Shown here piece after piece: positions 9,116-44,400 of a DNA stretch of 64,000 bases; positions within the stretch are counted from its first letter, which is position 1, and each line of letters begins with the position of its first letter. Source of the DNA: Emiliania huxleyi CCMP1516 (Eukaryota). Position numbers and translations under genes: made by a program. Where the stretch lies: NCBI RefSeq assembly GCF_000372725.1, contig NW_005202427.1, forward strand, positions 1,214,459 to 1,278,458, written 5' to 3'. The notes beneath the pieces are model-generated. The model was not told the DNA's origin. It saw nothing but the letters and a program-made list of their open reading frames with translations, and searched no databases.

Positions 9116-11416
9116 TCATCTCGCCTGCCCTTCATCCGTAAATGAAAAGGGCAAGTCCTCCTCCTCCTCCCCACCGCCCTCCGTCGCCGGAGCGCTCGCC
9201 CCCTCCATCAGCCGGCCCAGCTCCGCCTGCCACGCCTGCATCACATGGCCTGGCAGCGCGCCAGCAAGCATGCCTGCGTGCACAGCCGCGCCCAACGCCA
9301 CCGCCTCCATCGGCGCCACCGTCCTGCGCGGGTCGATGCCAAACAAGTTGGCGACCAGCTTGCGCACCGCCGCCATCTGCGTGGCACCCCCCACCAGGAC
9401 CACCTCCGCGAGCGGCTCCCCTCGCGGGAGGTAGGTTCGCTTGCCGCTCGGCAGGAGCGCCTACGCGGCGGGGGACCATCTTGACAATCCACCTGTGTCA
9501 CAACTGCAGGTGTGAAGAGACGCTGTTCACGCCTACGCGGCGGGGACCAGGCTCCCTCACGCCCCCCGCAGCCCCAGAGGGCCCAGCCCGCTCTGCCAGG
9601 GCACGCCTCCGCCGCGCGCCTCGCCTTCGCCGTCCGCTTCTTTGCTGGCGACGACGGCGCCGCCTGCGCGAGGGTTGCCTCGGACGTGCGACCCAAACGG
9701 AGGGCTCCGGCCACCCTCGCGCAAGCCGGGAGGGCGGGGGCATGCGCGCCTCCCCTGGCAGCGACACTGCGGCAGCGAGCGCAACCTCGTAAAGAGGCGC
9801 CTTGAGCCGCTGCAGCAGCGGCTCGCACGCAGCCTCCATCGCGTCGCGGGTCAGCTCGATCGAGGTGCCTTCGCCGCCCTCGCCGCCGCCCTCACGGTCG
9901 CCCGTCGCCGGCGACTGCGGCGACGGGAAGAGGACCGAGACGCGCTTGACGACCGAGAGCTTGCGCTTCGCCGCCTAGACCCGAGTATGATTGATGAATA
10001 TGTCATGTTTTTGGTGGTATTGTCACAGCTTGCGGCTTGGCCGCCTCGGCGCGCTCGCGCAGAGTGCGCAGCGCGGCCTCGTCGTGGTCGATGGCGGGGA
10101 GGGCGAGCCTCCGCCCCTGGGCCGCGAGGGGGGGGGGGGAGGGGGGGTTAGAGGGAGACGGAAGGCGGCGAGGGGGAGGACTGCGGCTGGGCCCGCGCTG
10201 CTCTGTCGTGCGCTGCTCTGTCGTGCGGAGCCGGCGGGAGAGTGCTCCCCGGCCCCGGTCCTCCTAGTGGTGGAAGAGAGGTCCTCGCCCCCGCAGGCCC
10301 CGCCCCGCCCCCGCAGGCCCCGCCCCGCCCCCGCAGGCCCCGGCAGCACCTCCGCGAGGAGGAGCGCGACGATGGCGGCGTCGAAGTCTGTCCCGCCGAG
10401 GAGCGGGTCCCCCGAGGTGGCGAGCACCTCGGGTTAGGGTTAGGGACAGGGTGAGGGGGAGGGGGAGGGACAGGGTGGGGGTTAGGCCGAGGAGCGGGTC
10501 CCCCGAGGTGGCGAGCACCTCGGGCGAGGCCGCCGAAGCGAGGCCAGGGGCGTGCTGTCAGGCGTGTGCAGCGGCCAGAGCGGCGGCGGTGCGGCGCGGA
10601 TGGGCGGCGGTGAGGCCCGGCCCAGGGCGTGTGGCGCACCTCGACGGCCTAGAAGGCTCCTAGAAGGCTCCTAGAAGGCTCCAGGGCGTGTGGCGCACCT
10701 CGACGGCGCCCTCGTCGCCGAGCCGCAGCACAGACACGTCGTAGGTTCCGGCGCCTAGAGGGCTCCTAGAAGGCTCCTAGAAGGCTCCGGCGCACAGACG
10801 CGTCGTAGGTTCCGGCGCCGAGGTCGAGGACGAGCACCTTGCCGACCGCCCCGCCGAGGCCGTAGGCGAGCGATGCGGCGACCGGCTCCGCGAGCAGCGA
10901 GACCGAGCCGAGCCCGGCGAGCCGGGCCGCTGCGAGCGTCGCCTGCCTCTGAGGCGCGTCGAAGTAGGCGGGCACGGTCACGACTGCGCGGCAGATCTCG
11001 CTCGCCGGGACGTCGAGCGCCCCGAGCAGCTCGGCCAGCACGCACGCGCCGGCCTCCTCCGGACTCAGATCGCCCACCGCAGGAAGCCGAAACATGGCGG
11101 CGCCCTCCTCGTCGCCGACCACCGTATACTGCGCACGTGCAATCTCGGCCTTGCACTGGCGCACGGTCCGCCCAATGAAGCGCTTGGCCGCCACCACCGT
11201 GTTGCGCACGTTCTGGCTGGCCTGAAGGTCGGCGGCCGCGCCCACCAGCACGGTGCCGTCGCCGGTGAAGGCGACGGTGGAAGGTGTCAGCGGCTCGCCG
11301 CGCGCGTTCGGGAGCAGCGACGGCTCGCCGCCTCGCAACAGCGCTATGGCCGAGTTGGTGGTGCCAAGGTCGATGCCGACGAGCAGGCCAGTGGCGAGGC
11401 AGGACGCGAGCAACAT
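9116..11416 (-). CDS. Hsp70-family protein, nucleotide-binding domain only, multi-exon
   Basis: GIDLGTTNS, TVPAYF, LAEPVAASLAYG, DLGAGTYDVSVL, ATSGDPLLGGTDFD, VLVGGATQM, EAVALGAAVHA; stop follows shortly after. Confidence 0.9.
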
Positions 11417-11656
11417 TTTTTCGTGCAGCCACGATCTTTTTCTTTTCTTCTCCGCCCTACCCCAAGCTGGCGAGTAGAGACCACGCTAAATACGTGAATA
11501 TGTGCTAAATATGAACGCACTCGAACACACACTAAATAGCGCACTAAACTATCACTAAAATTCATTCACACGCACTAAATTTAGACCCAGGCGCCCTCCG
11601 CTACCCAACGCGGCCAAAGGATACGAGAACCCCGAGAGGTCTGTGAATTCACGCAC

Positions 11657-13766
11657 ATGCACCCACAGATGTTGCGAGCGGCACGTCCTGTGAGCCGCGT
11701 GTGGCTCCGCAGCCTCCGCCCGGCGCAGCTTACCCTGCGGCACGGATACGCTGCCGGCGGCGGAAGCGGCGGCGGAAGCGGCGGCGGCGTTAGCGGTGGC
11801 GGTGGCGGCGGTCTCGATGGCGGCGGCTTCACAGACATTCGCTCTGATATGTGGCTGTCTGCCCGCATGCCGGCGTGGCTGGTCCCGTACGGCGAGCTTG
11901 CGCGCTGGGATCGCCCGATCGGGACGTGGCTGTTGCTCTGGCCCTGCCTTTGGTCGATAGCGCTCGCGGCGCCGGCCGGCACGCCGCCAGACCCGCTGCT
12001 GTGCAGTCTGTTTGCGGCGGGCGCGGTGGCCATGCGCGGCGCCGGCTGCACGGTCAACGACCTGTGGGACCGCGACTTTGACCGGCGTGTCGAGCGAACG
12101 CGCCACCGACCCCTCGCACGCGGCGCGCTCCAGCCGTCGCAGGCGCTCTGTCCTCTTGCCTCCGTTGGCCAAGAGAGAGGCGGCGGGAAGGGTCACGCCA
12201 GCGCTGCGCCTCCAGGCGATCGGCTTCCTGGGCGCGCAGCTCAGCGTCGCGCTGGGCGTGCTTCTCGCGCTGCCGTTGCCTGCGGTTGCGGCGGGGCTGG
12301 CTAGCACGCCTCTATGGGTGCTCTACCCTCTCGCCAAGCGGGTCACGGACTGGCCTCAGGCAGCCGAGATGCCCAGCGCACGCTCGGGGCGGCAGAGAGA
12401 CTCGAGGTTGTCCCCCGCTCGCAGGCGGTGCTCGGTGCTGCCATCAACTATGGCGCCTTGCTGCGTGCGGGCGCGGCATGGGCTGGTCGGAGGCGTGAGG
12501 GTGGGCGGGGTGTGTGAGCAGGCGGACTGCTCGGCTGGGTGGCGGTGCGCGGCGACGTCGACTGGGCGGTGGTGGTGAGAGAGGGCGAGGGTCCGTCTCC
12601 CGCCCCGCCTTAGCCCTCCGCCCGCAACCCCCCCCCCCCTTTGGCGCAATAGGCTCCTCTGTACGGCGGCGCCTGGCTCTGGACGCTGCACTACGACACC
12701 GTCTACGCGCACCAAGCACGCACCCGCCCTCGCCCGCCCTCCCCACCCCGCCCTCCCTTGCCCGCCCGTCTTTCGCCCCTGCCTTCTCCCTCGCCGCCGC
12801 CCTCCTCCGCCGCCCCTCCGCAGCCGCCCCTCCGCCGCCGCCCGGCTAGGCGCGCCTCGCCCATCGCCCGGCTAGGCGCGCCTCTCCCACCGCCCGCCCG
12901 CATCCGCCACAGGACAGGAGGGACGACGCCGCAGCCGGCGTCCGGTCGACAGCGCTCCGACTAGGCGAGCCGCAGCCGAGATGCAGCCGAGATGCAGCCG
13001 AGATGCAGCCGAGGTGCAGCCGAGGTGCAGCCCGGATGCAGCCGAGGTGCAGCCGAGATGCAGCCGAGGTGCAGCCGAGATGCAGCCGAGGTGCAGCCGA
13101 GGTGCAGCCGAGATGCAGCCGAGATGCAGCCGAGATGCAGCCGAGGTGCAGCCGAGAGGTGTGGCTCCGGAGCGAGCGACGAGACCCCTCACGCCCTCCT
13201 CCCCGCCTAACGCCAAGGCGACAGCACCCTCCCGGCGCTCACCCTCTTCTCGACCGGCGCTATCGGAGGGCTCGCTGGCGCCGGCGCAGGCGCAGGCCTT
13301 GGCGCCGCAGGCAGTCCCGGCGGCTACGTCTACTTTTGCGGCCTCGCCGCCGCGGGCGGGCATCTCGTCTGGCAGCTGCGCACCGTGCGGCTCGACTCGC
13401 CGCCAGACTGCCTGCGCATCTTCCAGTCGAACCGAGACTTTGGCGCGCGCCCTGCAAGCGCCGCGCTCGCGCGCCTAGCTCGCCGCTCCACCCTCGAGGA
13501 GCAAAGTAGGAGCACTCGTCTTCGGCGCCATCGTCGCGGCGCAGCTGCTGCGCGGTGCAGGAGAGGAGGGGGGCAAGGGCGAAACCGCCGAGGGCGTTGG
13601 CGCTGAGGGCGACGCAGAGAATGCAGACAGGCGTGGCAGCCGCGCAAGGGAGAGGCACCTGACAGGTTTTGACGTGTTGAGATCTCTCTGGTGCGGAGAG
13701 GCCGACATTGCGAGCCGGGTTCGGCGTGCAGTTGGGTTCGCGGCCGAGAGAGGGGGTGAGAGCTGA
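11657..13766 (+). CDS. COQ2: 4-hydroxybenzoate polyprenyltransferase (UbiA family), mitochondrial, multi-exon
   Basis: Arg-rich transit peptide; ARWDRPIGTWLLLWPC, MRGAGCTVNDLWDRDFDRRVERTRHRPLARG, YPLAKRVTDWPQ, WTLHYDTVYAHQDRRDD, FQSNRDFG. 3' end approximate. Confidence 0.93.
12972..13157 (+). repeat. 11-bp tandem repeat (GCAGCCGAGRT)n in COQ2 intron
   Basis: ~16 copies of gcagccgagat/gcagccgaggt within inferred intron ~12965-13217. Confidence 0.92.
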
Positions 13767-14233
13767 GAAGACGCGAGCGCTCCGACCTCCGTCTGAGAGC
13801 TGAAGCCGACACGGGTGAGAAAGCGTGCTCTCGCGTGTCGCTCGAGCGGTCGCTCCCAGATCTTAGATATACATTGCATTCGATTGAATCGACGCGCTCA
13901 TGTGTGCATGAGCATGTGCTCTTTTTTGCGTGTGTTAACTAGATCAGGGTGAGGGTCTCTCGTGAGCGACGTGAGTTGGAAGAGCTGAATGCCCACCACC
14001 CGCTGAGCCCCGCGCCGACCTCGTAGCTCGTTTGTTTCGCTCGAGACGCTGAATCGCGCCGGCTCATGAATCGACGCTCTCACGAGATCACGTGTGAATC
14101 GACGCTCAAGGGAGATTAGACTATGCAAAATAGACGTATCGGGGGTGGGAACGTACACACATGCCGGGTCGCCAGGCTCATTTCGGGCTTGCGCGACGGA
14201 TACTCAACAGCGCACTAGCACTGCACATAGACT

Positions 14234-15453
14234 TCACGTGGCCGCAAGCTTTCCCAAGCAGCTGAGGTCCTCCGGGGGCGCCCAGCCACGCGTGACGAGC
14301 TGTGGACGGGGGGCGGGGCGGGGGGGGGGAGGGGGGTAGTGAGACGAGCACGCCCTTGACCCACCCGGCGGGAGGGGAAGGGGCTTACCTCGGGCCCCCC
14401 GTCTGCCTCGAAGACCTTGTTGGCTGCCTCGGACCAGCTAACCTTGTCGGGCAGCGTTCCGCCGTCAATGATGAGGCCGTCTCGCGCAAAGACCTTCTTC
14501 CAGTCGGAGCCAAGGAAGGAGAACTTGGCCGCCGAAATGGGGTGCATCATGTGCTTTGCGACGCCCCAGACGGCGCGCACGATGAACGGGCCATTGATGA
14601 TGTACGTCTTGCACATCGATTCGGGGTAGTGGCCGGAGAGCACCTCGGACGTCTTCCGCATCAGGGTCTGGAACTGCTTGCCCATCACGCTGCTGCTGAG
14701 GCCGGCGCAGTCGATGACCGTCACCACCTTGTAGATGCGCTTCCTGCGCGCCTTCGAGTTGGCCAGATTGCACGCGCGCTTGGCCTCGGCAGAGTACACG
14801 ATGTGCGGGAGGATGTCCTCCACGTCGAAGTGCTTGAAGAGCTCCGCCACCTTGAGCCGCCCGAGCTTGACTAGCTCGACGATGTGACCCTCCTGGTCGT
14901 GCCCGATGGGACCGCTCTCGTTGAGATCCTCGAAGCGCGCGCGGTGCGGCGGCGGGTGTGCCAGCGCGGAAGACGCCGCGTGGCGGTCACGCCAGTCGAG
15001 CGCCTCGGAGAGCTCCACGTACACCGTCTCGGCCCAGTCCTGCCTGTAGGCGTACCCTCGCAGGAAGCACATCAGCAGGTCGTACGGCACGGCGTCGAAA
15101 CGCTCCCCTCCCAGCCACTCTCGCACCGTCGCGAGCACGGCAACCTCGCCATTGAGGAGCGGCTCCCACTCCGACGCCGGTGTGAAGGCCTTCACCTTGG
15201 GGTCCGGAAGCAGGTCGGCCCGTGTCGGGGGCACCGATTCGTCGCGGTAGCTGATCTTCTTGGACTGAAAGAAGCTCGACCGCCGCGATTGGCTTATCAC
15301 GTTGCCAGCACTCGCCCGCTCAGACTGTCGGTACGAGCGGCGCTCGTGCTCGTCGCTGCGGCTCTTGGCGAGCTCGACAGCCTGACTGGCCTCCCTCGCC
15401 TCCCGCTCCGCCCGCTCAATGGCAACGTCAATGCCGGGCTCGGCAGTCGTCAT
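14234..15453 (-). CDS. CRAL-TRIO (Sec14-like) lipid-binding protein
   Basis: LLMCFLRG, GHDQEGHIV, VIDCAGLS, HYPESMCKTYIINGPFIVRAVWGVAKHMMHPISAAKF. One GT-AG intron near 14300-14388. Confidence 0.88.
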
Positions 15454-15631
15454 TTGCACAACTTGAGAATGGGGGGGGCCGACGGCGCAGGTTTGCCCGA
15501 ATTACGTACGTTCCACCGCGAGAAAGAATTCCTTTCGCTCGGGCGACAAAGAAAAGCGCAAGTAATTTTTTTAGGTCCGACCGGCAAGCCAAGGCTCTGC
15601 GCGTGAGGAGGGCTGTGGATGCGCCACACCG

Positions 15632-16262
15632 TGTGAAGAATTCTTAAAATAGAACACTGGCACGACAAGGGCGCGGACTGGCAAACACACATTGCTAAAA
15701 ATCTCTCTCTCTCGGACTGGCGCGGACTGGCACTCACACACATCTCTCTCTCTCTCTCACACAGCCGGCACGCTACTCGAGTAAGAATTTTACAACAAAA
15801 CTCCCTCAGTGGTGTACCTGTGTTAGTGCAGTGCGCGCCAGTCCCGTGATTGATTGATGGGAAAGCGAAACACAGTCCGACCAACGACTGGGACACAGTC
15901 CCTTGCCCAGTGTTGTGCGAGTAAGAATTCTTAAGATACAAGCCTCTCTCACAGCACACTGGCACGACAAGGGCGCGGACTGGCGCGGACTGGCACACAC
16001 ACAGGCTCACCACCGGAGCCGCCTAAGCGACTCCGTTAAGAACGGCAATGCACTCCGCACCATGCACAATGCCGCTCTCCCCGCACGCTAGCTCGTTCAC
16101 CGTCTGCCACGCCACGGCGGTGTGGAGGACGACAGACAAGCGCTGCATCTGCAGCCCGTGCCAGTTCTTGGTGGTCCATGTGACCTCGTCCAGGTGCTGA
16201 GCGTGCGAAAGTTTGTTGCTCAGCTGGTTCGCCGCCTCCCTCAGGGTGCTGCGAACCTCCTT
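15632..16262 (-). mobile_element. stack of 5'-truncated non-LTR retrotransposon 'family A' 3' ends
   Basis: 15924-16262 is the reverse complement of ~19517-19855 with no difference I could see, flanked by tgcgagta (15916-15923, 16263-16270). Further 3'-UTR fragments (gccagtccgcgcc..., ending taagaattctt/taaaattctt) lie at 15632-15920. Confidence 0.8.
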
Positions 16263-16337
16263 TGCGAGTAGGGATCCCTACTCGTAAGAAATAAAGCGCT
16301 CGCGCTCCACAGCCTCCTGTCGCGCAAGTAGAGGAAG

Positions 16338-17268
16338 ATGTTGCTTCGGCTCCGGCCTCTCCGACTCCAACCACGTCTCCAGTGCCGCGGCTGGCACGAT
16401 GTCACGACGCTGAGCCGCCGCGACTGCGCCGACGCCGGCTCATCTCGCGGCCTCCCGCCTCTCCTCCGCTGGCACGCACGGGCGCTTCACGAGCGGCCGA
16501 TGCTGACGGCGGCCGCCGCAGGCGCTGCGGCGGCCGGCCTGGGCGATGCCGTCGCCCAGGGCGTGAGCTGGGCGCTGGGCGTCCACGGCAGCAGCGAGCT
16601 CGACTGGTCGGCACGGCTCGTCCGCTGCGGGTGCGTCGCCAGTTTCGGCGGGCTCGCTGTTGGGTGCGGCGGCGAGGTGTGGTGGCGCGCGCTGAGCAGA
16701 TACTTTCCGGGAGGCACGTACGAGGCGGGCTTGCGCTTCACCCTCGACCAGGCTGTCTTTGCCCCGGTCGTCCTCGGCCTCGCCGCCGCCGCGTGGCCGC
16801 TGGTGGAAGGGCGCGGGGTGAGTGCCGCCCGGGCGCACGTCGACTCGGACTGGCGCGCCGGACTCTCCCTCCCCACCCAGCGTGCTGCCCGCCCCTCATT
16901 TCCAGCGCCACAAACACTGGATTCAGCGTCACAGACTCTGTTGCTCACCCAGGTACCACATGCTTGGCAAAATGTGGACGTTTTGGGGCGGCGCCTCTGC
17001 GGCAAGCTACCTGCTGGCGCCGCCACAGTGGCAGCCCTCCGCGGCGGCGGCGGCCGCCGTGCTGTGGTCGGCCTACGTCTCGTACCGCCTGCACCACCCC
17101 GCGCCGGAGGAGGCCGAGATGGCCAACGCGTCGGCCATCGATGACTACCTGCGCGAGCATCGCTCCGACCGGTACGACGTCAGGGCGGGCGGAGGCGACG
17201 ATGGCCCGACCGGCAGCGCCGTGGATCGCGCGCGGGACCTCCTCAGCGTGCTCAGTCCGGGGAGATAG
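16338..17268 (+). CDS. Mpv17/PMP22 family membrane protein, 2 exons
   Basis: RPMLTAAAAGAAAAGLGDAVAQ, W.R.L, LDQAVFAP, then W.FWG...SYLLAPPQWQ...LWSAYVS. Intron ~16855-16952. Confidence 0.85.
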
Positions 17269-17358
17269 CGTGCCCGCCGAGCTCCCTCTAACGCCCGCCC
17301 ACTATCGAGTCTGTTTTGAGCTGGTGTCGGGGTGCCACCTGGCCGCGCAGTCACCAGT

Positions 17359-19855: not shown

Positions 19856-19873
19856 AAATCTCTTTTTCTCGCG

Positions 19874-21298: not shown

Positions 21299-21464
21299 TG
21301 CAAGGGCGCAGGGGTTTCTTCTTTCCACTCCCGTGTGAAGGCCGTTTTCTTTTCTCAGCCTCTCTGTTTGCCCTGTGCCCGGGCGAGTAGAGGCACTCGC
21401 ACGCACTCTCGAGGTGCACCACTCTCGAGGTCTCTTCATGGTAGGGGTGCCCTGCTCCGGGCAC

Positions 21465-21680
21465 AGAAAGAAAACGGACAGGACCCCAGGGAGGGATATG
21501 GGAGGACGGCACGCCGCCACCACACAGGGATTTTAAGGAGAGGGGAGCACAGAAAGAAAGAAAGAAAACGGACAAGCCAAGGGAGGGATGGGAGGACGGC
21601 ACGCCGCCACCACACAGGGATTTTAAGGAGAGGGGTGTGGTGCGCTAGCCGTCGCCCACCCTTGGGCGTCCGCCTCTTCC
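21465..21680 (-). mobile_element. two tandem 'family B' retroposon 3' ends
   Basis: Two copies of (gaaa)n...gggagggatgggaggacggcacgccgccaccacacagggattttaaggagagg. Confidence 0.8.
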
Positions 21681-22877: not shown

Positions 22878-25800
22878 CTACTCCCGCTCCCACTCGTCCT
22901 TGTTCTCGGCCCCCCACGAGAAGCGCATCATCTTCATCTCCTCCTCGAGCTCGGTGGCCCAGTCGCCTTTGCCCGTCGCGCGCGCGTGGTTGAAGTTGCG
23001 GTGCATGTCGACGATCTTGCGCGCCTCCGGCGACAAGTCCATGTACCGCCCCTGGTACGGCTCGTCGTCGCAGACCTGCGGCGCAGCGCACGAGTGGCGG
23101 CGCAGCGCAGTAGTGGCCCCTGGCGCGAGCCTCGTCTGTGCATCTCGCGCGGGCGGGGAGGGCGGCGCGCGCCTGCTTGATGGCGAGGGCGGGCGAGAGC
23201 TTCTCCTCGGACGGGAAGAGCCGCGAGAAGACCGGGCCGCCTGAGGAAGGTTCCGAGAAGGTTCCGAGAGGGTTCCGAGCAGGTTCCCGAAGGTTCCGAG
23301 AAGAGCGGGCCGCCCGTCTCCTTGGGCAGCATCACGTGCACCTCGCCCGGCTCGTATGTCCACGTCGCCTGCCACACAAGCCGAGCCCCGGTGACGCTCT
23401 CCTGGCGCGGGCGGGCGAGGTGCGGGGCTGTGTCCACGCGCCTCGCCAGCCACCACAGGCTTGTCGAGCGAGCCTGAGAGGGGGGGGGAGGGAGGTCGAA
23501 GGCCTGCGCCGTGAGCCGACGCGAGGGAGGGCGGCGCGGCGAGGGAGGGCGGTGCGGTGGCGAGGCGAGCAAGCCTGCGAGGAGGACGTGTCCAATAGAC
23601 TACTCAATAGACTTCTCACTAGCAAGCCTGCGAGGAGGACGTGTCCGCGCGCCACCATCCGCAGCAGCAGCGGCTTGATCTCGACGCGGATGTCTCTCCG
23701 CGCCATGTCGGGCGGGATGCGCACGAGCAAGTTGATCTCCTGCGGGGCAAGGTCGGAGGGGTGAGGGGTGGCGGCGCGGGGTCGGCGAGCGGCTGCGGCG
23801 GCTTCCTCGTCCGTCTGCGACCACGAGTAGGTCGTGTTTGCCTCGAGCGGAACCTCCGCCTTGCGCAGAGGGAGCAGAGGGAGCAGGGGGAAGGGGGGGG
23901 GGGGGGGGGGAGCAAGTCGGCTGTGGGGCGGGGTGGCCTTGCGCCCGTGCCCCGACCCTCTCGGGCCCGCTAGTCCCACGGCTCGCGCTTCTCTGCTGCT
24001 CGAGCGCAACCTTGATCAGCGCTCCGCCGCCGCCGCCGCGAGAGGGAGGCTTTGCGGCCGGCTCCGCCCGCCGCTGCAGCATGTCTCTCCGCTGCAGCAT
24101 GCCGTTGCCAGGCGCTCCGCCCGGCGAGGGCTGCGGAGGCGGCTTGCGCGTGATCGGCGCCGCCTGGGTCGCACCCGCGGCGGGAGTGGCGCGGGGGTCG
24201 GGGCGAGGCGCGTGCGGAGGCGGGGCGGCAGGACGACGGCTCGCTGCCTCTGGGCTTTGGGGGGGCGAGAGAGGGGGGAGGGGAGAGGTGTGTGAGGGGG
24301 GAGAGCGTGCGATGCCTTTGGGCTGACGAGGGCCAGCTCGTGGTGCGGGAAGGGTTAGGGTTAGGGTTAGGGTCAGGGTTAGTGCCTTTGGGCTGACGAG
24401 GACCAGCTCGTGGTGCGGGAAGGGTTAGGGTTAGGGTTAGGGTCAGGGTCAGGGTTAGTGCCTTTGGGCTGACGAGGACCAACTCGTGGTGCGGGAAGGG
24501 TGAGGGTTAGGGTTAGGGTTAGGGTCAGGGTTAGTGCCTTTGGGCTGACGAGGACCAGCTCGTGGTGCGGGAAGGGTTAGGGTTAGGGTTAGGGTCAGGG
24601 TCAGGGTTAGTGCCTTTGGGCTGACGAGGACCAGCTCGTGGTGCGGGAAGGGTTAGGGTTAGGGTTAGGGTCAGGGTCAGGGTTAGTGCCTTTGGGCTGA
24701 CGAGGACCAGCTCGTGGTGCGGGAAGGGTTAGGGTTAGGGTCAGGGTTAGGGTCAGGGTCAGGGTTAGTGCCTTTGGGCTGACGAGGACCAGCTCGTGGT
24801 GCGGGAAGGGTTAGGGTTAGGGTTAGGGTCAGGGTCAGGGTTAGTGCCTTTGGGCTGACGAGGACCAGCTCGTGGTGCGGGAAGGGTTAGGGTTAGGGTT
24901 AGGGTCAGGGTCAGGGTTAGTGCCTTTGGGCTGACGAGGACCAGCTCGTGGTGCGGGAAGGGTTAGGGTTAGGGTCAGGGTCAGGGTCAGGGTTAGTGCC
25001 TTTGGGCTGACGAGGACCAGCTCGTGGTGCGGGAAGGGTTAGGGATAGGGTTAGGGTCAGGGTCAGGGTTAGTGCCTTTGGGCTGACGAGGACCAGCTCG
25101 TGGTGCGGGAAGGGTTAGGGATAGGGTTAGGGTTAGGGTCAGGGTTAGTGCCTTTGGGCTGACGAGGACCAGCTCGTGGTGCGGGAAGGGTTAGGGTTAG
25201 GGTTAGGGTCAGGGTCAGGGTTAGTGCCTTTGGGCTGACGAGGACCAGCTCGTGGTGCGGGAAGGGTTAGGGTTAGGGTTAGGGTCAGGGTCAGGGTTAG
25301 TGCCTTTGGGCTGACGAGGACCAGCTCGTGGTGCGGGAAAGTGCGCCGGTGCTCCGGGCCGTAGTAGCCTACGAGAGACAGCCGCAAGCTCACACGGCGC
25401 CCCTCCCTCGCAAGCGGCGAGCCCCGTGGCGGTATGCGGCGCCGCCGCGGTGGCAACGCACGCACAAGTCGAAGGCGCTGTCGCCGACGCCGCAGTCGAC
25501 GCAGTGGTAGAAGCGGCGGACCTGTTAATATTAATATTAATGTTAATATTAATATTAATCGACGCAGTGGTAGAAGCGGCGGACCTGTTAATATTAATAT
25601 TAATATTAATGTTAATATTAATATTAGTCGACGCAGTGGTAGAAGCGGCGGACCTGTTAATATTAATATTAATATTAATGTTAATATTAATATTAATCGA
25701 CGCAGTGGTAGAAGCGGCGGACCTGTTAATATTAATATTAATATTAATGTTAATATTAATATTAATCGACGCAGTGGTAGAAGCGGCGGACCTGTTCGCG

Positions 25801-27167
25801 GCACGGCGCGTGAAGAGGCGCTGCTCACGGCCGTGGGAGGGGCCGCAGCCGAGGAGGCACAGTGGAGGCGCAGCCGTCGCAGCTGGCTTGGGAGCCCGGC
25901 AGAGGGTACTCTCGCTCCTCGCCTGATCAGGTCAAGAGTGGAGTGCTGATGAAGCAGGCACGGCACTCGGTCTCCTCTCGCCAGCGGCTCGGTGAGGCCG
26001 AGGAGACGGGCTTGGCGGTGGGGCGGTGGTGGGGTGGAGCAGCGGTCGGGAGTGGAGTGGCGGTCGGGAGTGGAGTGGCGAGCGGGTTGGGTTAGGGATA
26101 GGGTTCGGGTTAGTGGAGTGGCGAGCGGGTTGGGTTAGGGATAGGGTTAGGGTGAGTGGAGTGGCGAGCGGGTTGGGTGGCGGGGCGAGGCTGCGCCTGG
26201 GTCAGAGCCCTACTAACCCCTCCTAACCCTAACCCTAACCCTAGAGGCTGGCCTGGGTCAGAGCCTCCGTCGCTGGAGGAGCTCGACGATGCGTCCGAGG
26301 CAACGCGCCTACAGGGCGGTTCCAACAAGGTTCCAAGAAGGTTCCAAGAAGGTTCCAGGAAGATGCGTCCGAGGCAACGCGCCCCTTGTACGCGGGCACG
26401 GGCTTCCGCCTCCGCCTCCGAGGCCCCTCCGAGCCCTCCGCCCGGGCGCCGTCCACACGCGGCCCCGCCGCTGCTGCCGCTGCTGCTGTTGCTGTTGCTG
26501 CTGCTGCCGGCGGTTGCTCCTCCTTCGTGGGTCGCGGGGTGAGCCGCACGGCTGGTCGCCAGGAGCTGCGTGCCGGCACGGCCACGCCGTTCGAGAAGCC
26601 GTCGCCATTCTCCCCTCCCACCGCCGCTCGCCCCGATAGGCGGCTCTCTGCGAGGCGGCTCTCTGCGAGGCGGCTCTCTGCAGGTGCGACTCGAGCGACT
26701 CGCGTGCCGCCGTCCACCGCCTGCCGTCGCCAAGCCTGCCGTGCGCGCGCCGCCGAAAAGGCACCGCGCCCAGCCGAGGAGTCCGGCACCGCATCAGCCT
26801 GCGCACCATCGTGCTCGGGCAGTGCACAGACAGGAGCATTCTCGCCCGCGAGAGACTCCTGCAGGTGCTGCCTACGGCCGTCGCCGCAAAAGAGAGAGCT
26901 CCAGCCAGCGACCTTCTCCTTGAAGAGGACGAGTCGCAGCTCCGTGGATTCCGCGCCGCTCTCCGGTACGTACAGCGTGTAGGCGCGTGTGCGGCGCGGC
27001 ACGACGGGCGCAAACAGCCGGCGGCGAAGCAGGACGCCCGAGCCTGCGAGCTCGAGTGTCAGGCGGCGGCGGGAGAGGACGACCTTGAGCTGGCTGTGGG
27101 CGGTGCCGGTTGGCACGACGATGCCGCACGTTGCAGTCGCGTTGTCCTGCCTCCACGTGTACGCCAT
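22878..27167 (-). CDS. CS-domain / ZZ zinc finger / CS-domain (NudC-like co-chaperone) protein, many exons
   Basis: MAYTWRQD...LRLVLFKEKVAGWSSLF (CS); SCDGCAST|VRRFYHCVDCG...FDLCVRCH (ZZ); YSWSQTDE|EINLLVRIPPDMARRDIRVEIK...TWTYEPGEVHVMLPKE (CS). Joining these into one gene is inferred from the splice pattern. Confidence 0.7.
24312..25340. repeat. 14-copy array of a ~40-bp exon end separated by TTAGGG/TCAGGG hexamers (period 70-82, mostly 76 bp)
   Basis: tgcctttgggctgacgaggaccagctcgtggtgcgggaa counted 14 times. Linkers are 5-7 telomere-type hexamers. Confidence 0.97.
25496..25796. repeat. 5-copy array of a ~30-bp acceptor/exon start separated by (ATTAAT)n
   Basis: cgacgcagtggtagaagcggcggacctgtt at ~25498, 25561, 25630, 25699 and 25768; period 63-69 bp. 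Confidence 0.97.
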
Positions 27168-27252: not shown

Positions 27253-28036
27253 GGAGAGAGATAGGAAGAGGCAGACTACCTAGGGTGGGCGACGGATAGC
27301 GCACCACACACCTCTCCTTAAAATCCCTGTGTGGTGGCGGCGTGCCGTCCTCCCATCCCTCCCTTGGGTTGTCTGTTTTCTTTCTTTCTTTTTGGGCATC
27401 ATCCGTAGAGGCACGAGTGTTCGAAGAGAGAGTGGACCTGAGCAACAACATGACCTGTAGGCAAATGATCGGAGTGGGAGTCAGAAATGTGGTCCTTGCG
27501 CGAGGGGAGCTCGATAGACTCGAGGGGCCAGGATACGCCGCGAGGAGGACGGAGTTGCGCCGAAAGGCGAAAGAAGCCGCGAGAACAAGGGACCGGCAGG
27601 CGGCGGCGTCGCAGGACGAGGCAGAAGAGAACAACGCGACAGAGGAGGAAGTGACATCAAGGGAGAGAACGACGAGGGTGGGACGACCGCGAGGTGGCAT
27701 GAAGGTTGCAGCGAGAATCGGCGAGAGACTGCGAAGAGAGATAGGAAGAGGCAGGACTCCCTAGGGTGGGCGACGGATAGCGCACCACACACCTCTCCTT
27801 AAAATCCCTGTGTGGTGGCGGCGTGCCGTCCTCCCATCCCTCCCTTGGGTTGTCTGTTTTCTTTCTTTCTTTTTTGGAATATCATTTCGTGTGCGTCGCC
27901 CATCTCTCCCTGGAGATGACTGCTCTATTTATTTATTTATGGAATATCATCGCACAAAATGGTGGCGGCGTGCCGTCCTCCCCCATCCCTTACTTGGGTT
28001 GTGCGTGTCCCTTTCTTTCTTTTTCCCTCCTTTGGT
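27253..28036 (+). mobile_element. tandem 'family B' retroposon copies; the second retains the ORF C-terminus
   Basis: 27253-27392 and ~27733-27875 are near-identical and end in (tttc)n. The second is preceded by an open frame ending ...ERLRREIGRGRTP* (27764). A degenerate third copy lies at 27960-28036. Confidence 0.75.
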
Positions 28037-28257
28037 GTGTCTGTTTTCTTTCTTTTAGAAATTCCCTCCCTCGCACATCACTGGAAACGTGAATAGAGAT
28101 CCGCGAAACCGCCGCACCCCCCAGCGGAGGGGGCTCGAGGTGTCGAGGCCAGGGCTCAGGCACAAGAACGAAAAAAATCGAAATCGGCAACGCTTCAAAT
28201 CGGCAACGCTTCAAATCGGCAACGCCAATCGATCTGTCAGGTCCGCCGGTCGTCCAC

Positions 28258-34963: not shown

Positions 34964-34995
<32 letters not shown>

Positions 34996-36892: not shown

Positions 36893-38115
36893 CCCCTCTC
36901 TCGCGGTTTGGAGCTGTTGGGAAAGGCTGGGGCAGTCGACTCGAGTCTCGACGAGCGTGCGTGCGGTGACTCGTTGGCACATGGCAGGCCGCCCGTTGAC
37001 CTCTTCGTACCCTCCGCACATTCCCCTCCCGCCCTCACACGGCGCGGCCGCAAGCAACGGGGGCGGCACGCGCAAACGACATACTAAAAGGCACATGTAC
37101 AAAACGCGAAAATACGATCGGTAACCAGCCTCCGGCGGGGCCCCCCGCTCCCATCCAAACCCGAGACCGGTCTCGATCATAGATAGAGGGGCTCAAGTGT
37201 GACATAAGTCCACACACATACGATACACATACACAAAAAAGCAACTCTCACGACACACGGGCACCGGGTGGAGCGGCGGCGGCGGCGGCAGCGGCACGCG
37301 CGGGCGGACGGATTCGGACGGGGCGGAGCAGCGACGCCTGGGCGGCCGCTGCTCTGTCTGCCAGAGCGCGCCGTCTGCGCAGCTCCGAGCGCCGTCAGGT
37401 GCAGGGAAGCGTGGCGGCGCGGGGACGCGCGGCGGCGGTGGCGAGCAGGCGAGCGGCCCGCGCGCGGCGAGGCGGACAGGTGATCGGCAGGCGGGTGATG
37501 GGCCGGAGAGTGACCGCGCCCAGCGATCGGAGGCGAGCCGATCGTCGCTCGGCCGCAGCTGACCTCGAAGGCGTGCGGAGCGCGACTGTCGGTGTCGGAG
37601 GGCGGCCGTCATGTGGCGAGGAGGGAGGACGACAAGTGCGCGTCGTACGGGTCGCTCTTCATCGGCCAGTCGAGCGGACGGTGGCGTCGGTCAAAGTGAG
37701 GGCCGGTGAGGCCGGCGAGATTCGTTGCGAGATACGGTTCACAAGTTTGGACCCTCTGTGGACGCGCCGCAAAATCAGGCAATTGGAAAGGGGGCTACTG
37801 GGGCGGCCAATTCACACCTCGCGGGACTACTTATGTTTTCGTAAACGTAGTTGTGGCCCCCCGCTACGTCGCACGAGTGCAACCGGGTAGCGGGGGGCTA
37901 AAATGACAGCAACGAAATATCATTCTCGCAAAACCTCTCTCGTCTCTCTCCCTCTCTCTCCACAGCGAGCAGCGGTCTCCAGGAGCAGGTGAGTGGTGAC
38001 GTCCCCACGCGCGCGTGGGCGAAAGAGCGTATTCGCCACCCGCGCAGTCGCTGCGCAGCGATGGGACAGTGGCGTGAGTCGGTGAAGCTCACACTGAACG
38101 GAGCACGTGACCGGT

Positions 38116-38215
38116 NNNNNNNNNNNNNNNNNNNNNNNNNNNNNNNNNNNNNNNNNNNNNNNNNNNNNNNNNNNNNNNNNNNNNNNNNNNNNNNNNNNNN
38201 NNNNNNNNNNNNNNN
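38116..38215. other. assembly gap (100 N); others at 43085-43184 and 48677-48776
   Basis: Runs of N. Confidence 1.
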
Positions 38216-38549
38216 GCTGGGGGACAGGGAGGGGTGGGCCTGTCCTCCTAGGGAGGGGGAACCTTAGCAATACAGAACAATTAGAGAGATAAGATGACGT
38301 CGGGGGCAAGGAGGGAGCTCCCGCAGGATGTAGTTTAGGGTGGTTGGAGTATGAGGGGGGGGGGCAGATTTGGGCGATGGTCTTCAATTGATTGCCTCGT
38401 TCATGCGGGCGCGAGAAGTGCAGACAGGGTTACCAGGTGAGAGAGAATGGCGGGGGGGGGCGGAGGCGAGGCAGCGCGAGCCGCGGCGGCGCGAGCCGCG
38501 GCGGCGCGGGCGGCGGCGGCGCGGGCGGCGGCGAGGGCGGCGTCGCACC

Positions 38550-40287
38550 GGTCCGGTTGTCGCACTCGAGCGCGTGGACGGGGCCGATGCGCGCGGCCTA
38601 ATTAAATCGTAATTAATGAGAGAGTATTTAATTAAGGACGGGGCCGGGGCGCGCGGCCTCAGCGTGGATCTCCTCGACCGCCTTCGAGCGGTCCGCCTCG
38701 CCGGAGGAGCCCGCGCCTAGAAGGTTCCTAGAAGGTTCCTGGAGCTTCCTAGAAGGTTCCTCGCCTCGCCGGAGGAGCCCGCGCCCTCCGTCTCCATCGG
38801 CGTTGGCTCGGCCGGCTTGGCGGCGAGCGCCGCGGCGCCGGCTAGGGTGTGCTCTCCAGTGTCGGCCGGCGCGGCGGCGGCGGCGGCCTTGTCGGCGGCA
38901 ACCTTGTCGGCGGAAGCCTTGTCCGCTGCAGCCTTGTCGCGCGCCTCTTCGAGCCTGTTGTTGTGCGACGCGATGTTTGCCTGCAGCTCTTTTGTGCACA
39001 GGTTCCGCACGTCGAGCACGTCGGGGAAGGAGATCGGGCGGAGGATCTTCGCGCGCTTCTCGGTATCCTTGCGGTACTGGAAGCGCACAAAGTTGACGGC
39101 GAGGTAGGGCGGGAGGCGGGCGATCTGCTCCGTCTTGTCGAAGAGCGCCTCGCGGCCGAGCGCGGCCGAGTGCTTCTCGATCGACTCGGAGAGGGACGCC
39201 TCGACCGCCGTGTAGAGGTGCGCCTGCCCGCGGCAGAGGGTGGTGAGGGAGGAGGCGCTTCGCAGCCGCGGCCCGGCGGCAGGCGCGCCGTCTTCTCGTT
39301 GATGTGGCACTTGAGGACCGTGTCCTTCTCGCGCTTCTCGTACGGCTCCTCGCCACCCGCCTCGGCGCACGCGTACCTCGTCACCTTCTCGACGCCTACG
39401 GGACGCGTCGCGGACATGTCACGCGCGCCCCCAGACACGTCGACCGCTGCCACCTCTCGTCGCCAAAGAGCGCGTCGCCGAGGTTGTCGCGCAGCTCCTG
39501 CTGGTGCGGCAGCAGCGGCGGCGAGGCGTTGTCGAGGTCGGACGGCGCGCCGCCTAGAAGGTTCCTAGAAGGCTCCTAGAAGGCTCCTAGAATGTCCCTG
39601 GAGGTCGGACGGCCCGGCGCCGTCGGGCAGCTTGAGCCGCTGCGCGAGCACATTCGTGACGAGCGTGGACCAGCACTCCTGCGCGTCCTGCTGCACAAAG
39701 CCGCGCCCGCCCTCGGCCTGCTGGGCGAACATCGGGAAGTTCTGCCGAAAGACCGACACGAACTTGAACGGGCGCACCTCCTGCGTCGCGTTGGACCGCT
39801 CGAGCTCGCCGACCAGCTCACGCATCGCAAACAGCAGCGCCTTCTCAGACTCGCCGCCGGTGCCGGCGTACTTTTGCAGCGCGAGCGATACCTCGGGGAT
39901 GCGGATCATCACCTGCAGCGACGAGTTGAGGTAGCAAGTGTTGCCGAGGTTCGTCAGCCCGCCCGGGTTCTTGGACGCGGTGAGCGCGGCGACGTCGACC
40001 GCGGGCATGTCCTCCACGAAGATCGTCTTCTCGGCGGGCGCCTCGGGCACCGCCTCGGCCGAACCCATGAGCATCAGCACCTGGCCCTGCTTGACGCCCA
40101 GCGCCTCCCAGTCCGCGCCGTCCTTGACGGTGCCTCCCTTGACGCCCATGATCTTTTGCCGCTCGACCGGCACGTTGGTGAGCGCGAATAGCTGCGCCTT
40201 GAAGAGGTCGACTGGCGCCGACTTGTCCAGCTCGACGGCCTCGAACTTCTTCTTGCCCCACTTGACGGTGACGTTGATTGTGGACAT
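38550..40287 (-). CDS. USP14: ubiquitin carboxyl-terminal hydrolase 14/Ubp6 (UBL + peptidase C19), 3' end not visible
   Basis: VTVKWGKKKF...FKAQLFALTNVPVERQKIM...MLMGS (UBL); GLTNLGNTCYLNS (Cys box); QQDAQECW; RLPPYLAVNFVRF...KAKILRPISFP.LDV. His box not found before the N gap. Confidence 0.92.
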
Positions 40288-40358
40288 ATATATATATTTG
40301 CGGCGGCGGAACGCGAGACAGCCTGGCTGCGGAAAGAATTTTACCACCCGACGCTGGA

Positions 40359-40460
40359 TGTAGCGCACCACACTCCTCTCCTTGAAATCCCTGTGTGGTG
40401 GCGGCGTGCCGTCCTCCCATCCCTCCCTTGGGTTGTGTGTTTTCTTTCTTTCTTTCTTTT
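40359..40460 (+). mobile_element. 'family B' 3' end just upstream of USP14
   Basis: tagcgcaccacac..ctctccttgaaatccctgtgtggtggcggcgtgccgtcctcccatccctcccttggg...(tttc)n. Confidence 0.8.
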
Positions 40461-40890
40461 GCGGTTGCTGACTGCACTCCAAGTGCTCCAAGCAAACTCC
40501 CTCGCACAACACTGGGCACGGGACTGGCGCGCACTGGCACTAACACAGGTACACCACGGGAGCCGCCTAAGCGACTCCTGCGAGGGTGGCGAGGCACTTA
40601 GCTCCGTGCACCCGCCCACCCCCGCCACAGGCAAGCTCATTCACGACCTGCTCTGCGATGGCCGTGTGAAGAACGACTGAGATACGCTGCTTCTGCAGCC
40701 CCAGCCAGCTCTTGGTGGTCCAAGTCACCTCATCGAGGTACTGGGCCCGCGTCAGCTTGTTCTGTAGCACGTCCGCCGCCCTCCGGAGGATCTCACGGAC
40801 CCCCTTTCCGAACCCGCCGAACGATTCGAACAGCAGCAGCTGCACCTCGACGCCCTTGTCTTCCCTGGCGTAGCGATAATCCCCGGATTC
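40461..40890 (-). mobile_element. family A sister-subfamily retrotransposon 3' end
   Basis: GDYRYARE...LFESFGGFGKGVREILRRAA..LQNKLTRAQYLDEVTWTTKSWLGLQKQRISVVLHTA aligns with the ORF at 19440-19756; the 3' UTR is related. Confidence 0.8.
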
Positions 40891-41322
40891 ACTCCTATGC
40901 ACCTTCGGTGAGGGTACATTGGCGCGTAAAAGGAGAGTCACGGAATCGCGCGCGCCTCCACCAGGAAGGGCTACGCAGTATCCCTGACATCCCAACGCGC
41001 AGTGGAGGAGGAGCGAGGGCAGGTGGCCCGGAAAGCCCAATGAACCCCACAGAAGGGGCAACTGGCCGTGGCATGGAGCCACAGAGGCGACAGCCAAATC
41101 ACGAGAGGGGTGAGGCCGGTCGCCGAGCGTCCAGAGGCCGCCGGGAATCGAGCCACCACCGTCAAGGCGGCAAGGGAGAAAGCACCACCCAACACCGCCG
41201 TGAAGGACGCAGAGGCAGAAGAAGAGGTAGGAGAGGAGAGGATCTCCGTGAGTCTCCTGCGGGAAACTAGTGGCCTATCACGAGTTAGGGCCCCTACCCC
41301 AATCGTTATTGGCGAAGACGTT
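40884..41322. mobile_element. dispersed repeat 'C', with segments recurring inverted at 57430-57455, 58214-58311 and 58752-58852
   Basis: Near-exact reverse-complement matches of ~100-bp blocks. Confidence 0.65.
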
Positions 41323-41406
41323 ATTTTTTGCGCCTAACACGCTCATGTGGAGCGCCGGCCTTTCGCTGTTGTTGTTAGTTGTCCTCCGAGGTGTTGAGCC
41401 AGCGTC

Positions 41407-44400
41407 ATGACTGCGGCCCTGTTCGCTCTCCTCCTCCTTCCAGCGCTCAACGACGACGCTGACCCTCGCACCCTCGTCCGCTGGGCCTCGTCGCGCTGCG
41501 AGCCGGCCGTAAGCGGCTCGTGCGGCCGCGAGCCGCACGGCTACTGCGACGCGTCGGTCGGCCGGTGCGTCTGCTCGCCCGGCCGCTTCGGTCCGCGGTG
41601 CGAGCAGATGCACTACCCGGCCTGCCGGCTGCACCCCGACGGCGAGATGGCGTGCGACACCTTTGTCGGCCTCATGTCCTGCGCGTGCCGCCTCTCGTGC
41701 GAGCAGAGGTACGGCTCGATGGCGCGGTTCAACACGCCTCTCTGCTGGGACGAGTCCGTGTCGGACGAGGAGCTCAGCCGCCGGTCGCTGCAAGCCGACG
41801 GCGGCCGCTCTCCAGCGACCCTCCGCACCCACACACTCCCCACCCTCCCCGACGCAAGCGGCCGCGCCTCGCTATCCCAGGCGCCCTCACCGCCCTCTCG
41901 CTGGTCAACACGTCCGACTTCCCGGCGGCGAGCGCGAGCATCGTCTTCCGCACCGACCAGTGGCCGCTGCGCGGCCGCTGCGCGCGGAAGAACATCGCGC
42001 CTGCCAAGCTCGCCGCCTGCACCTCGCGCACGGCCGTTGGCCACAACAAGGCGACGAGGCAGCGAGGAGAGGGGGGGGCGCCTCCGCTCTCCCCGCGGAC
42101 GCCGCCCGTCGCCGCGCCTCAGGCGAGGAACATGCTCGGCGGCGACCCCGTCCCCAACTGGCGCTGCCCCGGCTCCTGCTCCCACCGCGGCACGTGCCTC
42201 GTCCCCGCCGCCTAGACACTTCTGGGGCCTTCTAGGAACCGTCCAGGAACCTTCTAGGCACGTGCCTCGTCCCCGCCGCCTAGACACTTCTGGGGCCTTC
42301 TAGGAACCGTCCAGGAACCTTCTAGGCACGTGCCTCGTCCCCGCCGCCTAGACACTTCTGGGGCCTTCTAGGAACCGTCTAGGAACCTTCTAGGCACGTG
42401 CCTCGTCCCCGCCGCCGTCCGCTCGGAGCACGCGCGGGAGCAGTACCCGCTGCAGGGCGAGCGCGCCGGCGAGGCCCTGCCCCCGCCTCCGTGTGCGCGT
42501 GGGCGTGTGCCCTCACGCCTGCCGCACCGAGCAGGCGAGATTACCCGAGATTACCCGAGATTGCCCTCACGCCTGCCGCACCGAGCAGGCGAGCCGAGCT
42601 GCGTCTGCCACCGCGGGTATGTCGGCCGCGCCTGCGAGGCTGTCAGCCCGTCCGAGGAGCGCGTGCGCCTCGCGGCAACGCCGCCTGCCGACGCCGCGTC
42701 CGTGACGCGACCGTGAGTCGTGTCCACAGGAGCCGTTCGGCGCGTCGAAGTACGGCTCGCTCTGCCTCAACGGCCGAGGCTGCTCCGGCCACGGCGCGTG
42801 CGTCGCCCGCTTCTGCCTCTGCCACGCCGGTTGGGCGGGCGCAGACTGCTCGCTCCCAAACGCTCCGAGCCGGCCGCTGGCGCCGCCCGCCGCCCTGCCG
42901 AGCGCGCAGCCGATTGGCGGGCGGCGCGTGCCCATCTACATCTACCCGCTGCCGACCGAGATGTCGCTCGAGCACGTCTACATGCGCGACATGCTGCGGC
43001 GAGGCCAGTACTACGCCAACCTCATGTTCCTCGAGGTGACGCGTCCTCCTGCCCAACCTCCTGCCCAACTCGCCATCGCATGTCNNNNNNNNNNNNNNNN
43101 NNNNNNNNNNNNNNNNNNNNNNNNNNNNNNNNNNNNNNNNNNNNNNNNNNNNNNNNNNNNNNNNNNNNNNNNNNNNNNNNNNNNCCCCCAGTCCCTCCCC
43201 CAGTCCCTCCGCCAGCCCCTCCGCCAGTCCCTCCGCCGCGGAGCGGGCGGTGCCGCGCCCACACCCAACCGCCCGCCCCGCAGGCGCTGCTCCGCGACAA
43301 GGCCTCCGTCGTGGCAGACCCGGAGCAGGCGCGAGGCCGGCCTCGGCCCAGCGCCCGCCCGCTGCTCGCCCAGGCCGGCAGCTGCCTCGCCCGCAGGCGG
43401 CCCTCTTCTTCGTGCCGGTGATGCCGATGCAGATGGCGGGCAACTTGTGGCACCCATACGAGTTCCTCGCGCAGACCGCGCGCCACCTCGCGAGCGAGTA
43501 TCCCTTCTGGCGCCGCTCCGGCGGGCGAGCGACCAGCCCTTCCTCGCACGCCGAGTGAGGAGGGGATCAACAACTCACGGCATGTCAATCCATTGGTAGT
43601 CGCGACCACATCTTCTTCCTCACGACGGACCGCGCCGGCTGCTGGAAGCCATTCGAGCTCAACCAGTCCATTGTGCTCACCTACCTCGGCTTCTCTGCGC
43701 CGGAGGCCAACTCTGGCTGCGAGGAGCGGCTGGCTAACCCTCGCCCCGACCCTGGCCCTGACCCTGACCCCTAGGCCAACTTTGGCTTCGAGGAGCGGCT
43801 GCGCTGGGGCGCAAACCCGTCGGGGCCGGAGCGGCGCAACAACGCGTACGACACGCGCGAGGGGTCGGTCGCCACCACGCTGCCCTGCTACGTGCCTGGC
43901 CAGGACATCGTCGCTAGCCCCACCCCTGAGCCATAGCCCATACCCAAAACCCTAACCCGAACCCTAACCCTGACCCTGACCCTGACCCTGACCCTGACCC
44001 TGACCCTGACCCTGACCCTGACCCTGACCCTGCTACTTGCCTGGCCAGGACGTCGTCGTGCCCGTCGACACCGAGGTGAAGGCCGCCGACCAGGCAAAGT
44101 CGCCGCGGCCGGGCGCTCCGTACCAGTGCGCGGGCCGGGCGGGCAAGCTGAAGCTGCTGCACATGGGCGGCTCGATGCAGAACATGGGGCGGATCGAGTA
44201 CTCGCAGGGCGTGCGGCAGCGCATCGCCGAGCTGCACAGCGACGAGCCAGACTTCGTGCTCGGCGGCACCTTCACGCTGGACGACCTGCGCGCCGCCACC
44301 TTTTGCCTCGCGCCGTCGGGCTGGGGCTGGGGCTGGCGCATCACGCTCACCCTGCTGACGCAGTGTGTGCCCGTCATCATCCAGCCGAACGTGACGCAGC

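Follow-up and report, generated by a model that had tools for sequence, protein, structure and literature searches.

Repeat-linked exon duplications in Emiliania huxleyi: splicing, junction microhomology and a likely telomerase contribution

How do short tandem repeats, telomeric ones among them, come to lie between two copies of the same piece of a gene, and what becomes of them there? The question is raised by a stretch of 64,000 nt of Emiliania huxleyi CCMP1516 (contig NW_005202427.1, positions 1,214,459 to 1,278,458; this whole stretch is called the window hereafter), and it bears on a long-standing one, the origin of new spliceosomal introns. Repeat scans of the window revealed 21 elements of one build, namely a first copy, a linker of short tandem repeats and a second copy, the copies being 12–53 nt long. 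The linkers are telomeric (7 elements), an 11-mer, GGAACCTTCTA (9), a 10-mer, ATTACCCGAG (2), or AT-rich (3), and four of the 21 elements have been amplified into arrays. The initial annotation of this DNA had attributed all linkers to one telomerase-like chemistry at internal breaks, possibly with several RNA templates. We found that the elements are spliceosomal introns where RNA allowed checking, and that splicing, overlooked in that annotation, shapes one junction and the length of the element.

For comparison, 115 metagenome loci (244 kb) were fetched with a 23-base pattern of the 11-mer, 80 of them with flanks; this pattern had no match in viral contigs and none in the prokaryote genomes searched. 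An automatic, de-duplicated catalogue of window and loci holds 180 non-telomeric elements, 131 of them of the 11-mer class; some entries are mis-bounded, and the loci are biased toward perfect 11-mer tracts. The telomeric set comprises 11 hand-scored elements, seven from the window and four from the 244 kb of loci, and excludes the weak telomere-like case L009. The empty ancestral site of an element was deduced from its second copy. One locus, L014, is the orthologue of window 38508–40365 (97.7% identity).

Elements checked against RNA are removed by splicing

The elements and genes that bear on splicing are the following.

38576..38659, minus strand: 24-nt duplication with AT-rich linker; 60-nt GC-AG intron of a USP14-like gene (RNA contigs)
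38694..38785, minus strand: 24-nt duplication with 11-mer linker; 68-nt intron (RNA contigs)
39534..39621, minus strand: 21-nt duplication with 11-mer linker; 67-nt GC-AG intron, also in genomic locus L014 (RNA contigs)
39618..40287, minus strand: first exon of the USP14/UBP6-like gene, 98% to E. huxleyi CCMP1516 EMIHUDRAFT_199805
43704..43801, plus strand: 29-nt duplication with degenerate telomeric linker; 69-nt GC-AG intron, acceptor CCCTAG created at the junction
43883..44058, plus strand: 31-nt duplication with 114-nt telomeric linker; 145-nt intron, donor probably GA
44028..44810, plus strand: exostosin GT47 coding region downstream of the 145-nt element (PF03016)
49346..49449, plus strand: 35-nt perfect duplication with 11-mer linker; 69-nt GC-AG intron of eRF1 (RNA contigs)

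The RNA evidence consists of assembled contigs, not raw reads, from four runs of four studies, one recorded as RNA and three guessed to be RNA; a joint at 38890–42406 was dropped as a repeat artefact. Among the 15 of 40 joints listed, contigs of all four runs skip exactly one period of the elements at 38576, 38694, 39534 and 49346. Graph collapse fails to explain these skips because two of the four copies are shorter than 31 nt. In the exostosin gene, an RNA contig carries 402 nt between its anchors, which equals the predicted exons without both telomeric elements, while retention of one or both would give 471, 547 or 616 nt. Retention of any of five introns shortens the open reading frame (ORF) of USP14. 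Three of the four skipped elements are present in the DNA of L014, an independent population and assembly (3 of 3 in the overlap).

The catalogue agrees with this picture. An in-register G(T/C)...AG pair occurs in 152 of the 180 elements, against 52% under the null, and the 5′ parts of the introns repeat the following exon almost perfectly, with 3% mismatch over 3512 nt. With a slash marking the junction, 11-mer linkers read TAG/G at 80 of 86 clean ends. Among 98 sense-strand 11-mer elements, the donor is GC in 70 and the first in-register acceptor is CTAG in 84; a minority of elements hold AG/GY within the copy, so that a duplicated proto-splice site could supply both donor and acceptor. The period is narrow, with quartiles of 66–71 nt and a standard deviation of 7.2, against 13.6 were copy and linker lengths independent. 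Copy length trades off against linker length (rho −0.81), which keeps the period near 68 nt. The share of GC donors is close to the 56–65% published for the species, which also shows high intron retention and 4% GA donors (PMC4028052; this and the other papers cited by number are drawn on for their available portions). GA, as AG/GA, is the sole donor option in several elements, at 43883–44027 and in L050/L096, L093 and L084.

The idea that most introns are decayed elements was not supported. When likeness of the 5′ end to the next exon was scored, 4 of 14 RNA-supported introns exceeded the shuffled 95th percentile, and three of these were already known elements. An ordinary-looking 65-nt intron at 39220–39284 has an L014 allele (2585–2660) whose 5′ end copies the next exon much better; from the two sequences, the difference reads as an element decaying or re-duplicating.

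A predicted intron of the Hsp70 gene holds two elements

10820..11416, minus strand: first exon of an Hsp70/DnaK-like gene (PF00012)
10428..10698, minus strand: predicted Hsp70 intron, 271 nt, holding a telomeric and one 11-mer element
10395..10524, minus strand: 39-nt perfect duplication with 52-nt degenerate telomeric linker, period 91, across the acceptor of this intron
10622..10707, minus strand: 27-nt duplication with 11-mer linker (GGAGCC variant), across its donor
10728..10819, minus strand: 28-nt duplication with 11-mer linker (GGAGCC variant, as in the 10622 element); predicted 64-nt GC-AG intron

Here the telomeric element duplicates the acceptor and the 10622 element duplicates the donor. 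Only removal of 271 nt restores VEVLATSGDPLLGGTDFD, which is seen in a homologue (280 bits, against at most 257 for the three other donor/acceptor pairs). These homologue-match scores favour a single intron of 271 nt over a reading as three separate insertions into exons. As far as the letters go, 10428–10698 could consist of three abutting introns of 59, 121 and 91 nt with zero-length exons, a candidate for recursive splicing.

Junction microhomology exceeds chance in the 11-mer and telomeric classes

According to the initial annotation, telomere-repeat insertions start at GGG/AGGG microhomology. The Hsp70 junction is as it was quoted there: the copy at 10395–10433 ends cacctcggg/TTAGGG, and the partner reads cacctcggg/CGAGG. 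At the exostosin junction (minus strand, 44028/44027) we read gtagcaggg/TCAGGG, with gtagcaggg/CAGC in the partner, so that the quoted overlap stands, the first unit of the linker being the variant TCAGGG and not TTAGGG. Four other quoted overlaps were located at 49346, 23224 (minus strand), 62240 and 42508; the one at 23224 amounts to 7 nt against the local variant unit and to 1 nt against the consensus unit.

Chance overlap was estimated from simulated random insertions on local sequence, which allow for overlap arising on either side of an insertion. For the 11-mer class, 71 of 131 splice-free junctions were clean, and 61 were kept once junctions had been dropped whose overlap exceeded 8 nt or whose copies were mismatched within their final 8 nt. 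The mean overlap at this end is 1.97 nt (n = 61) against 0.59–0.61 nt simulated, and it reaches at least 3 nt in 20 of 61 junctions against 3% expected, which bears out the proposal of microhomology beyond chance. A similar excess is found in the 10-mer classes, in small samples (n = 3 and n = 10). Telomeric junctions likewise lie above chance (mean 1.64 nt, n = 11, against 0.64; p = 0.001), also without the two cited cases (mean 1.22 nt, n = 9; p = 0.04). The GGG/AGGG start applies to those two cases, which are the best ones, but not as a rule, as 7 of 11 telomeric junctions overlap by 0–1 nt. Junction microhomology is real but not obligatory. In 11-mer linkers overlap is present at both ends, and that at the TAG end is confounded with the splice-site consensus; since the linker ends in TAG/G and the period stays close to 68 nt, the AG/G overlap is largely splice consensus and no evidence of priming.

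Telomerase is the likely source of the TTAGGG class

TTAGGG telomeres, made by telomerase, have been reported for G. huxleyi and haptophytes, and the telomeric linkers match this host repeat, many of their units being variant. On their G-strand the linkers finish with GGTTAG in 8 of 11 cases (p = 0.006) and with TAG in 10 of 11 (p = 8e-5), with 32% expected by chance for each; when L009 is added, the strict GGTTAG register is found in 8 of 12 (p = 0.014). The G-strand lies mostly opposite to the gene strand, so that these linkers are C-rich on the sense strand, and for this reason host splicing rarely explains the GGTTAG end (L040 is perhaps an exception). Human telomerase releases its product at GGTTAG, which matches its template boundary; no haptophyte telomerase RNA template was among the literature matches listed. 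Given the overlap excess together with the fixed GGTTAG/TAG end register, telomerase is the likely source of this class, as the initial annotation had supposed. That some telomeric linkers are later copies is suggested by their variant units, by their clustering in the region and by the ATAGGG variant that two of them share.

The 11-mer linkers are probably copied locally

Rare variant units are shared by 11 of 41 same-locus pairs overall, against 2.6 expected, and by 9 of 34 pairs against 2.3 within the two main assemblies (p = 0.0008), where, counted per locus, sharing occurs in 5 of 12 loci against 2.0 (p = 0.025). Thirteen of 67 linkers are closer to a neighbour than to other loci (p < 0.05); they come from about six loci and include reciprocal pairs. 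An antisense linker of locus L018 is an inverted copy, 39 nt long, of the intron end of the next element together with GTGC of its exon. An inverted linker of L084 has a 29-nt match that includes six neighbour-exon bases (GAGAGA), found only there and in the orthologue L053. This read-through in L018 and L084 points to neither a fixed template RNA nor an excised intron, and fits fold-back DNA synthesis or copying of unspliced RNA. Gene conversion is a possible source of the shared variants, though scarcely of the exon bases. The product of the 11-mer class is therefore not independent of the local sequence (the 10-mer classes are too few for this comparison), and the view that one telomerase-like chemistry, using several RNA templates, makes all classes is not supported, since 11-mer linkers share local variants and two of them are inverted copies of a neighbour and its exon bases.

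A proposed scheme of break repair followed by a splicing filter

On balance we favour, as reasonably probable, the repair of a staggered break with primed filler, provided by telomerase for TTAGGG and by template switching for the rest, followed by a splicing filter. Breaks, enzymes and the order of events in this scheme are our reconstruction from the observed structure, splicing, microhomology, registers and local sharing of variants. Offset nicks 12–53 nt apart would leave 3′ tails, and fill-in would duplicate the target. One 3′ end would be extended first, primed on 0–6 nt of microhomology. In TTAGGG linkers this extension would be carried out by telomerase and would stop at GGTTAG; in 11-nt linkers it would be a template switch onto a nearby older linker, as DNA or unspliced RNA, directly or by fold-back; and in 10-nt linkers template switching is presumed by extension from the 11-nt case. 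After extension the broken ends would rejoin. A scar in an exon would be kept only if one period can be spliced out, the message then being exactly restored. The copy would supply a G/GC or G/GT donor, and the acceptor would be CTTCTAG of the linker or an AG within the copy, at a period near 68 nt. The 11-mer would thereby act as a self-copying intron seed without an enzyme of its own.

A wider joint reading, which we put forward tentatively and regard as slightly less than an even prospect, is that of an enzyme-free intron factory. In the course of break repair, acceptor-bearing repeats would pass out of an intron into a neighbouring exon, telomerase would contribute a class of its own, and the factory would make thousands of new introns and much of the GC-AG majority of E. 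huxleyi.

Several points weigh against this account. Enzymes, breaks and intron-less alleles are all unseen. The RNA check rests on assembled contigs, three of four runs being presumed RNA, and covers 6 of the 21 window elements, Hsp70 being among the rest; only 4–5 of 14 RNA-supported introns resemble such elements. The telomeric statistics come from 11 hand-scored elements, seven of them from this window, with the 7 of 11 starts at 0–1 nt noted above; these linkers are often degenerate (TCAGGG, ACAGGG), and the rare ATAGGG shared by two neighbouring ones fits copying as well as telomerase. For the 11-mer class, read-through into an exon is seen in two cases only, GTGC is common as an exon start (8 of 94), later gene conversion could be the source of variant sharing, and a fixed-end RNA template would equally give the strong one-strand bias of the TAG end. 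Moreover, Pol theta inserts are mostly below 25 nt and are copied from a few bases off the break, snap-back being minor (PMC5068794), whereas the inserts here measure 22–114 nt and their templates lie 60–900 nt away.

Alternative explanations

In retro-copying, a reverse transcriptase (RT) of the long interspersed nuclear element (LINE) type would, primed at nicks in the target, copy in either a LINE tail or the 3′ ends of introns that have been spliced out. The insert would be flanked by a target duplication, its 3′ end would be constant at TAG, and its 5′ end would vary and show microhomology. The linkers do have their 3′ end fixed at TAG in the 80 of 86 mentioned, with all 11 start phases in use, and their anatomy resembles 5′-truncated retroposition. 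Yet two linkers pass the splice site into exon bases, which are absent from excised intron RNA, and on the sense strand most telomeric linkers are rich in C. Duplications of 12–53 nt are long for most LINEs, no shared unique sequence is evident by eye beside 38 tracts without duplication in the 244 kb of loci, and no RT domain was found in the 45 scanned of the 125 long ORFs of the window. We regard retro-copying as improbable.

A second alternative has all linker classes synthesised de novo at breaks by telomerase or a telomerase-like RT that draws on several RNA templates. It is favoured by the microhomology of the 11-mer class and of the two 10-mer classes scored, by the TAG end common to 11-mer and telomeric linkers and by the identity across loci of 247 of the 389 11-mer units scored; no extended 11-mer array was seen as a potential DNA donor, the longest tract measuring 253 nt. 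The TAG end is, however, also the splice acceptor, at least six linkers of the 11-mer class have a different end register, and dozens of unit variants would require equally many templates. Rare variants common to one locus and inverted read-through into the exons of neighbours tell against it as well, and we think it unlikely.

About as doubtful is the capture of all classes, telomeric ones included, from existing arrays by DNA-templated end joining, in which telomerase has no direct part. The GGTTAG end in 8 of 11 is unexpected from random capture (p = 0.006), although the 5′ end of a captured telomere C-strand would share the GGTTAG register, which softens this objection. In favour of capture, telomeric units are degenerate and their linkers are clustered (7 in 64 kb, against 4 in the 244 kb of loci), and neighbours share ATAGGG and TCAGGG variants. 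Fragment capture is also named as an alternative by Nergadze et al. (PMC2246262).

An assembly artefact, or old introns invaded later by slipping microsatellites, might be suspected from a draft assembly with gaps and from units that amplify into arrays, but it is largely refuted, and very improbable, as the independent L014 assembly carries the same three elements and the 5′ parts of the introns copy the next exon.

Further elements and other features of the window

The remaining elements of the window are listed here.

65..168, plus strand: 33-nt duplication with 11-mer linker, period 71 (repeat scan)
23224..23314, minus strand: 18-nt duplication with 11-mer linker, period 73
23568..23646, minus strand: 26-nt duplication with AT-rich linker, period 53
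24313..25339, no strand assigned: array, 76-nt unit of duplication with telomeric linker, 13.5 copies; G-strand linker end GGTTAG
25496..25796, no strand assigned: array, 69-nt unit of duplication with TTAATA linker, 4.4 copies
26068..26178, no strand assigned: array, 43-nt unit of duplication with telomeric linker, 2.6 copies; ATAGGG variant in common with the 24313 array
26188..26265, no strand assigned: duplication with oppositely oriented telomeric linker, period 56
26288..26383, minus strand: 22-nt duplication with 11-mer linker, period 74
42189..42416, plus strand: array in the exostosin gene, 24-nt duplication with 11-mer linker, 68-nt unit, about 3.4 copies
42508..42593, plus strand: 32-nt duplication with ATTACCCGAG linker, period 54
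62240..62321, no strand assigned: 28-nt duplication with ATTACCCGAG linker, period 54
62437..62534, plus strand: 26-nt duplication with degenerate telomeric linker, period 72, end CCCTAG/GC

Whole units amplified to 3–13 copies, with several in-register splice sites, are found at 24313–25339, 25496–25796, 42189–42416 and 2001–2408. Fifty-one copies are perfect while their linkers are 11% off consensus; no clock was drawn from this, as units recombine into arrays. A preference of breaks for CpG-rich DNA was rejected, CpG being lower in duplicated targets than in flanks (0.135 against 0.162, n = 113, with detection bias possible).

Within the UbiA gene, 12972–13157 holds 17 copies of an 11-mer, GCAGCCGAGAT, akin to the 10-mer linker family, and no duplication was detected there. 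In locus L018, a stretch of 2.6 kb (2030–4620) contains six elements, which belong to three linker families. The same or related 10–11-nt repeats occur in the AT-richer loci L003, L063, L082 and L106, apparently from other organisms, and interrupt apparent coding stretches in L063. A dispersed repeat family with related ends (15654–16000, 21465–21635, 27813–28060 and 40390–40540; also in L007, L049 and many RNA contigs) is possibly a small mobile element. An open frame of 1465 aa at 52294–56691 consists of repeats of about 70 aa (210–213 nt period) with only a weak Tudor-like Pfam match, and at 60188–60640 a 180-nt tandem repeat of about 2.5 copies is followed by a T run.

Significance

The window holds about one element per 3 kb, which by extrapolation means on the order of 10^4 genome-wide if it is typical, while a 2012 review counted only five clear intron gains by break repair (PMC3443670). 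The scars are legible, which opens break geometry, template and splicing filter to statistical analysis, and the elements predict where gene models fail. They offer a mechanism for the GC-AG majority, which the available text of PMC4028052 puts down to GC content alone, and may account for the pervasive interstitial telomeric tracts of another coccolithophore (PMC13518057). The combination, a recurring acceptor-bearing repeat that spreads between neighbouring introns, was not found in a full-text literature search or in the available portions of coccolithophore genome papers.

Comparison with known systems

Each part has precedent, in telomerase-made interstitial telomeric sequences, duplication introns, break-repair introns and introners. 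The 10–11-nt intron repeats themselves may already be in print, the genome paper of Read et al. (2013) reportedly mentioning 10–11-bp repeats in introns.

Like the interstitial telomeric sequences at double-strand breaks described by Nergadze et al. 2007 (PMC2246262), the telomeric elements consist of a TTAGGG tract with in-register microhomology, and overlaps of at least 3 nt are found in about 33% of those loci and in 4 of 11 here. Target duplication is rare in that study (4.6% in rodents, 16% in primates), whereas it is the defining feature of the elements scored here, which moreover lie in genes and are spliced. As in intron gain by tandem duplication at an AGGT-like site (PMC3443670), the donor comes from a duplicated exon segment, and the message is exactly restored once one period has been removed; unlike there, the copies are separated by a foreign repeat linker, usually the source of the acceptor, donors are mostly GC, and the linker makes even very short duplications long enough for splicing. 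New introns with direct repeats were ascribed to staggered breaks in 2014 (PMC4202315); the exon-intron repeats there measure 4–12 bp (33 cases), against 12–53 nt here, where the fillers come from few recurring repeat families.

Among repair activities, Pol theta produces flank-templated, error-prone and snap-back inserts (PMC5068794), and CST/Pol alpha makes small tandem duplications at breaks with 3′ overhangs (PMC8355091). The elements resemble these products in their microhomology-primed flank copies, sometimes inverted, and in their 3′-overhang duplications, and differ in that inserts are longer, templates farther away and repeat tracts preferred, and in being fixed as introns.

Compared with introners of the DNA-transposon type, the elements have no terminal inverted repeats, and their 5′ phase, linker length and 12–53-nt duplication vary. 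Introners share with them GC donors and precise splicing through a target duplication. As with the introners of Micromonas, Aureococcus and Pelagomonas (10.1101/2021.10.25.465678), many recent, related introns are found. Unlike in introners, about 40% of each intron here is host sequence, and copies resemble their neighbours.

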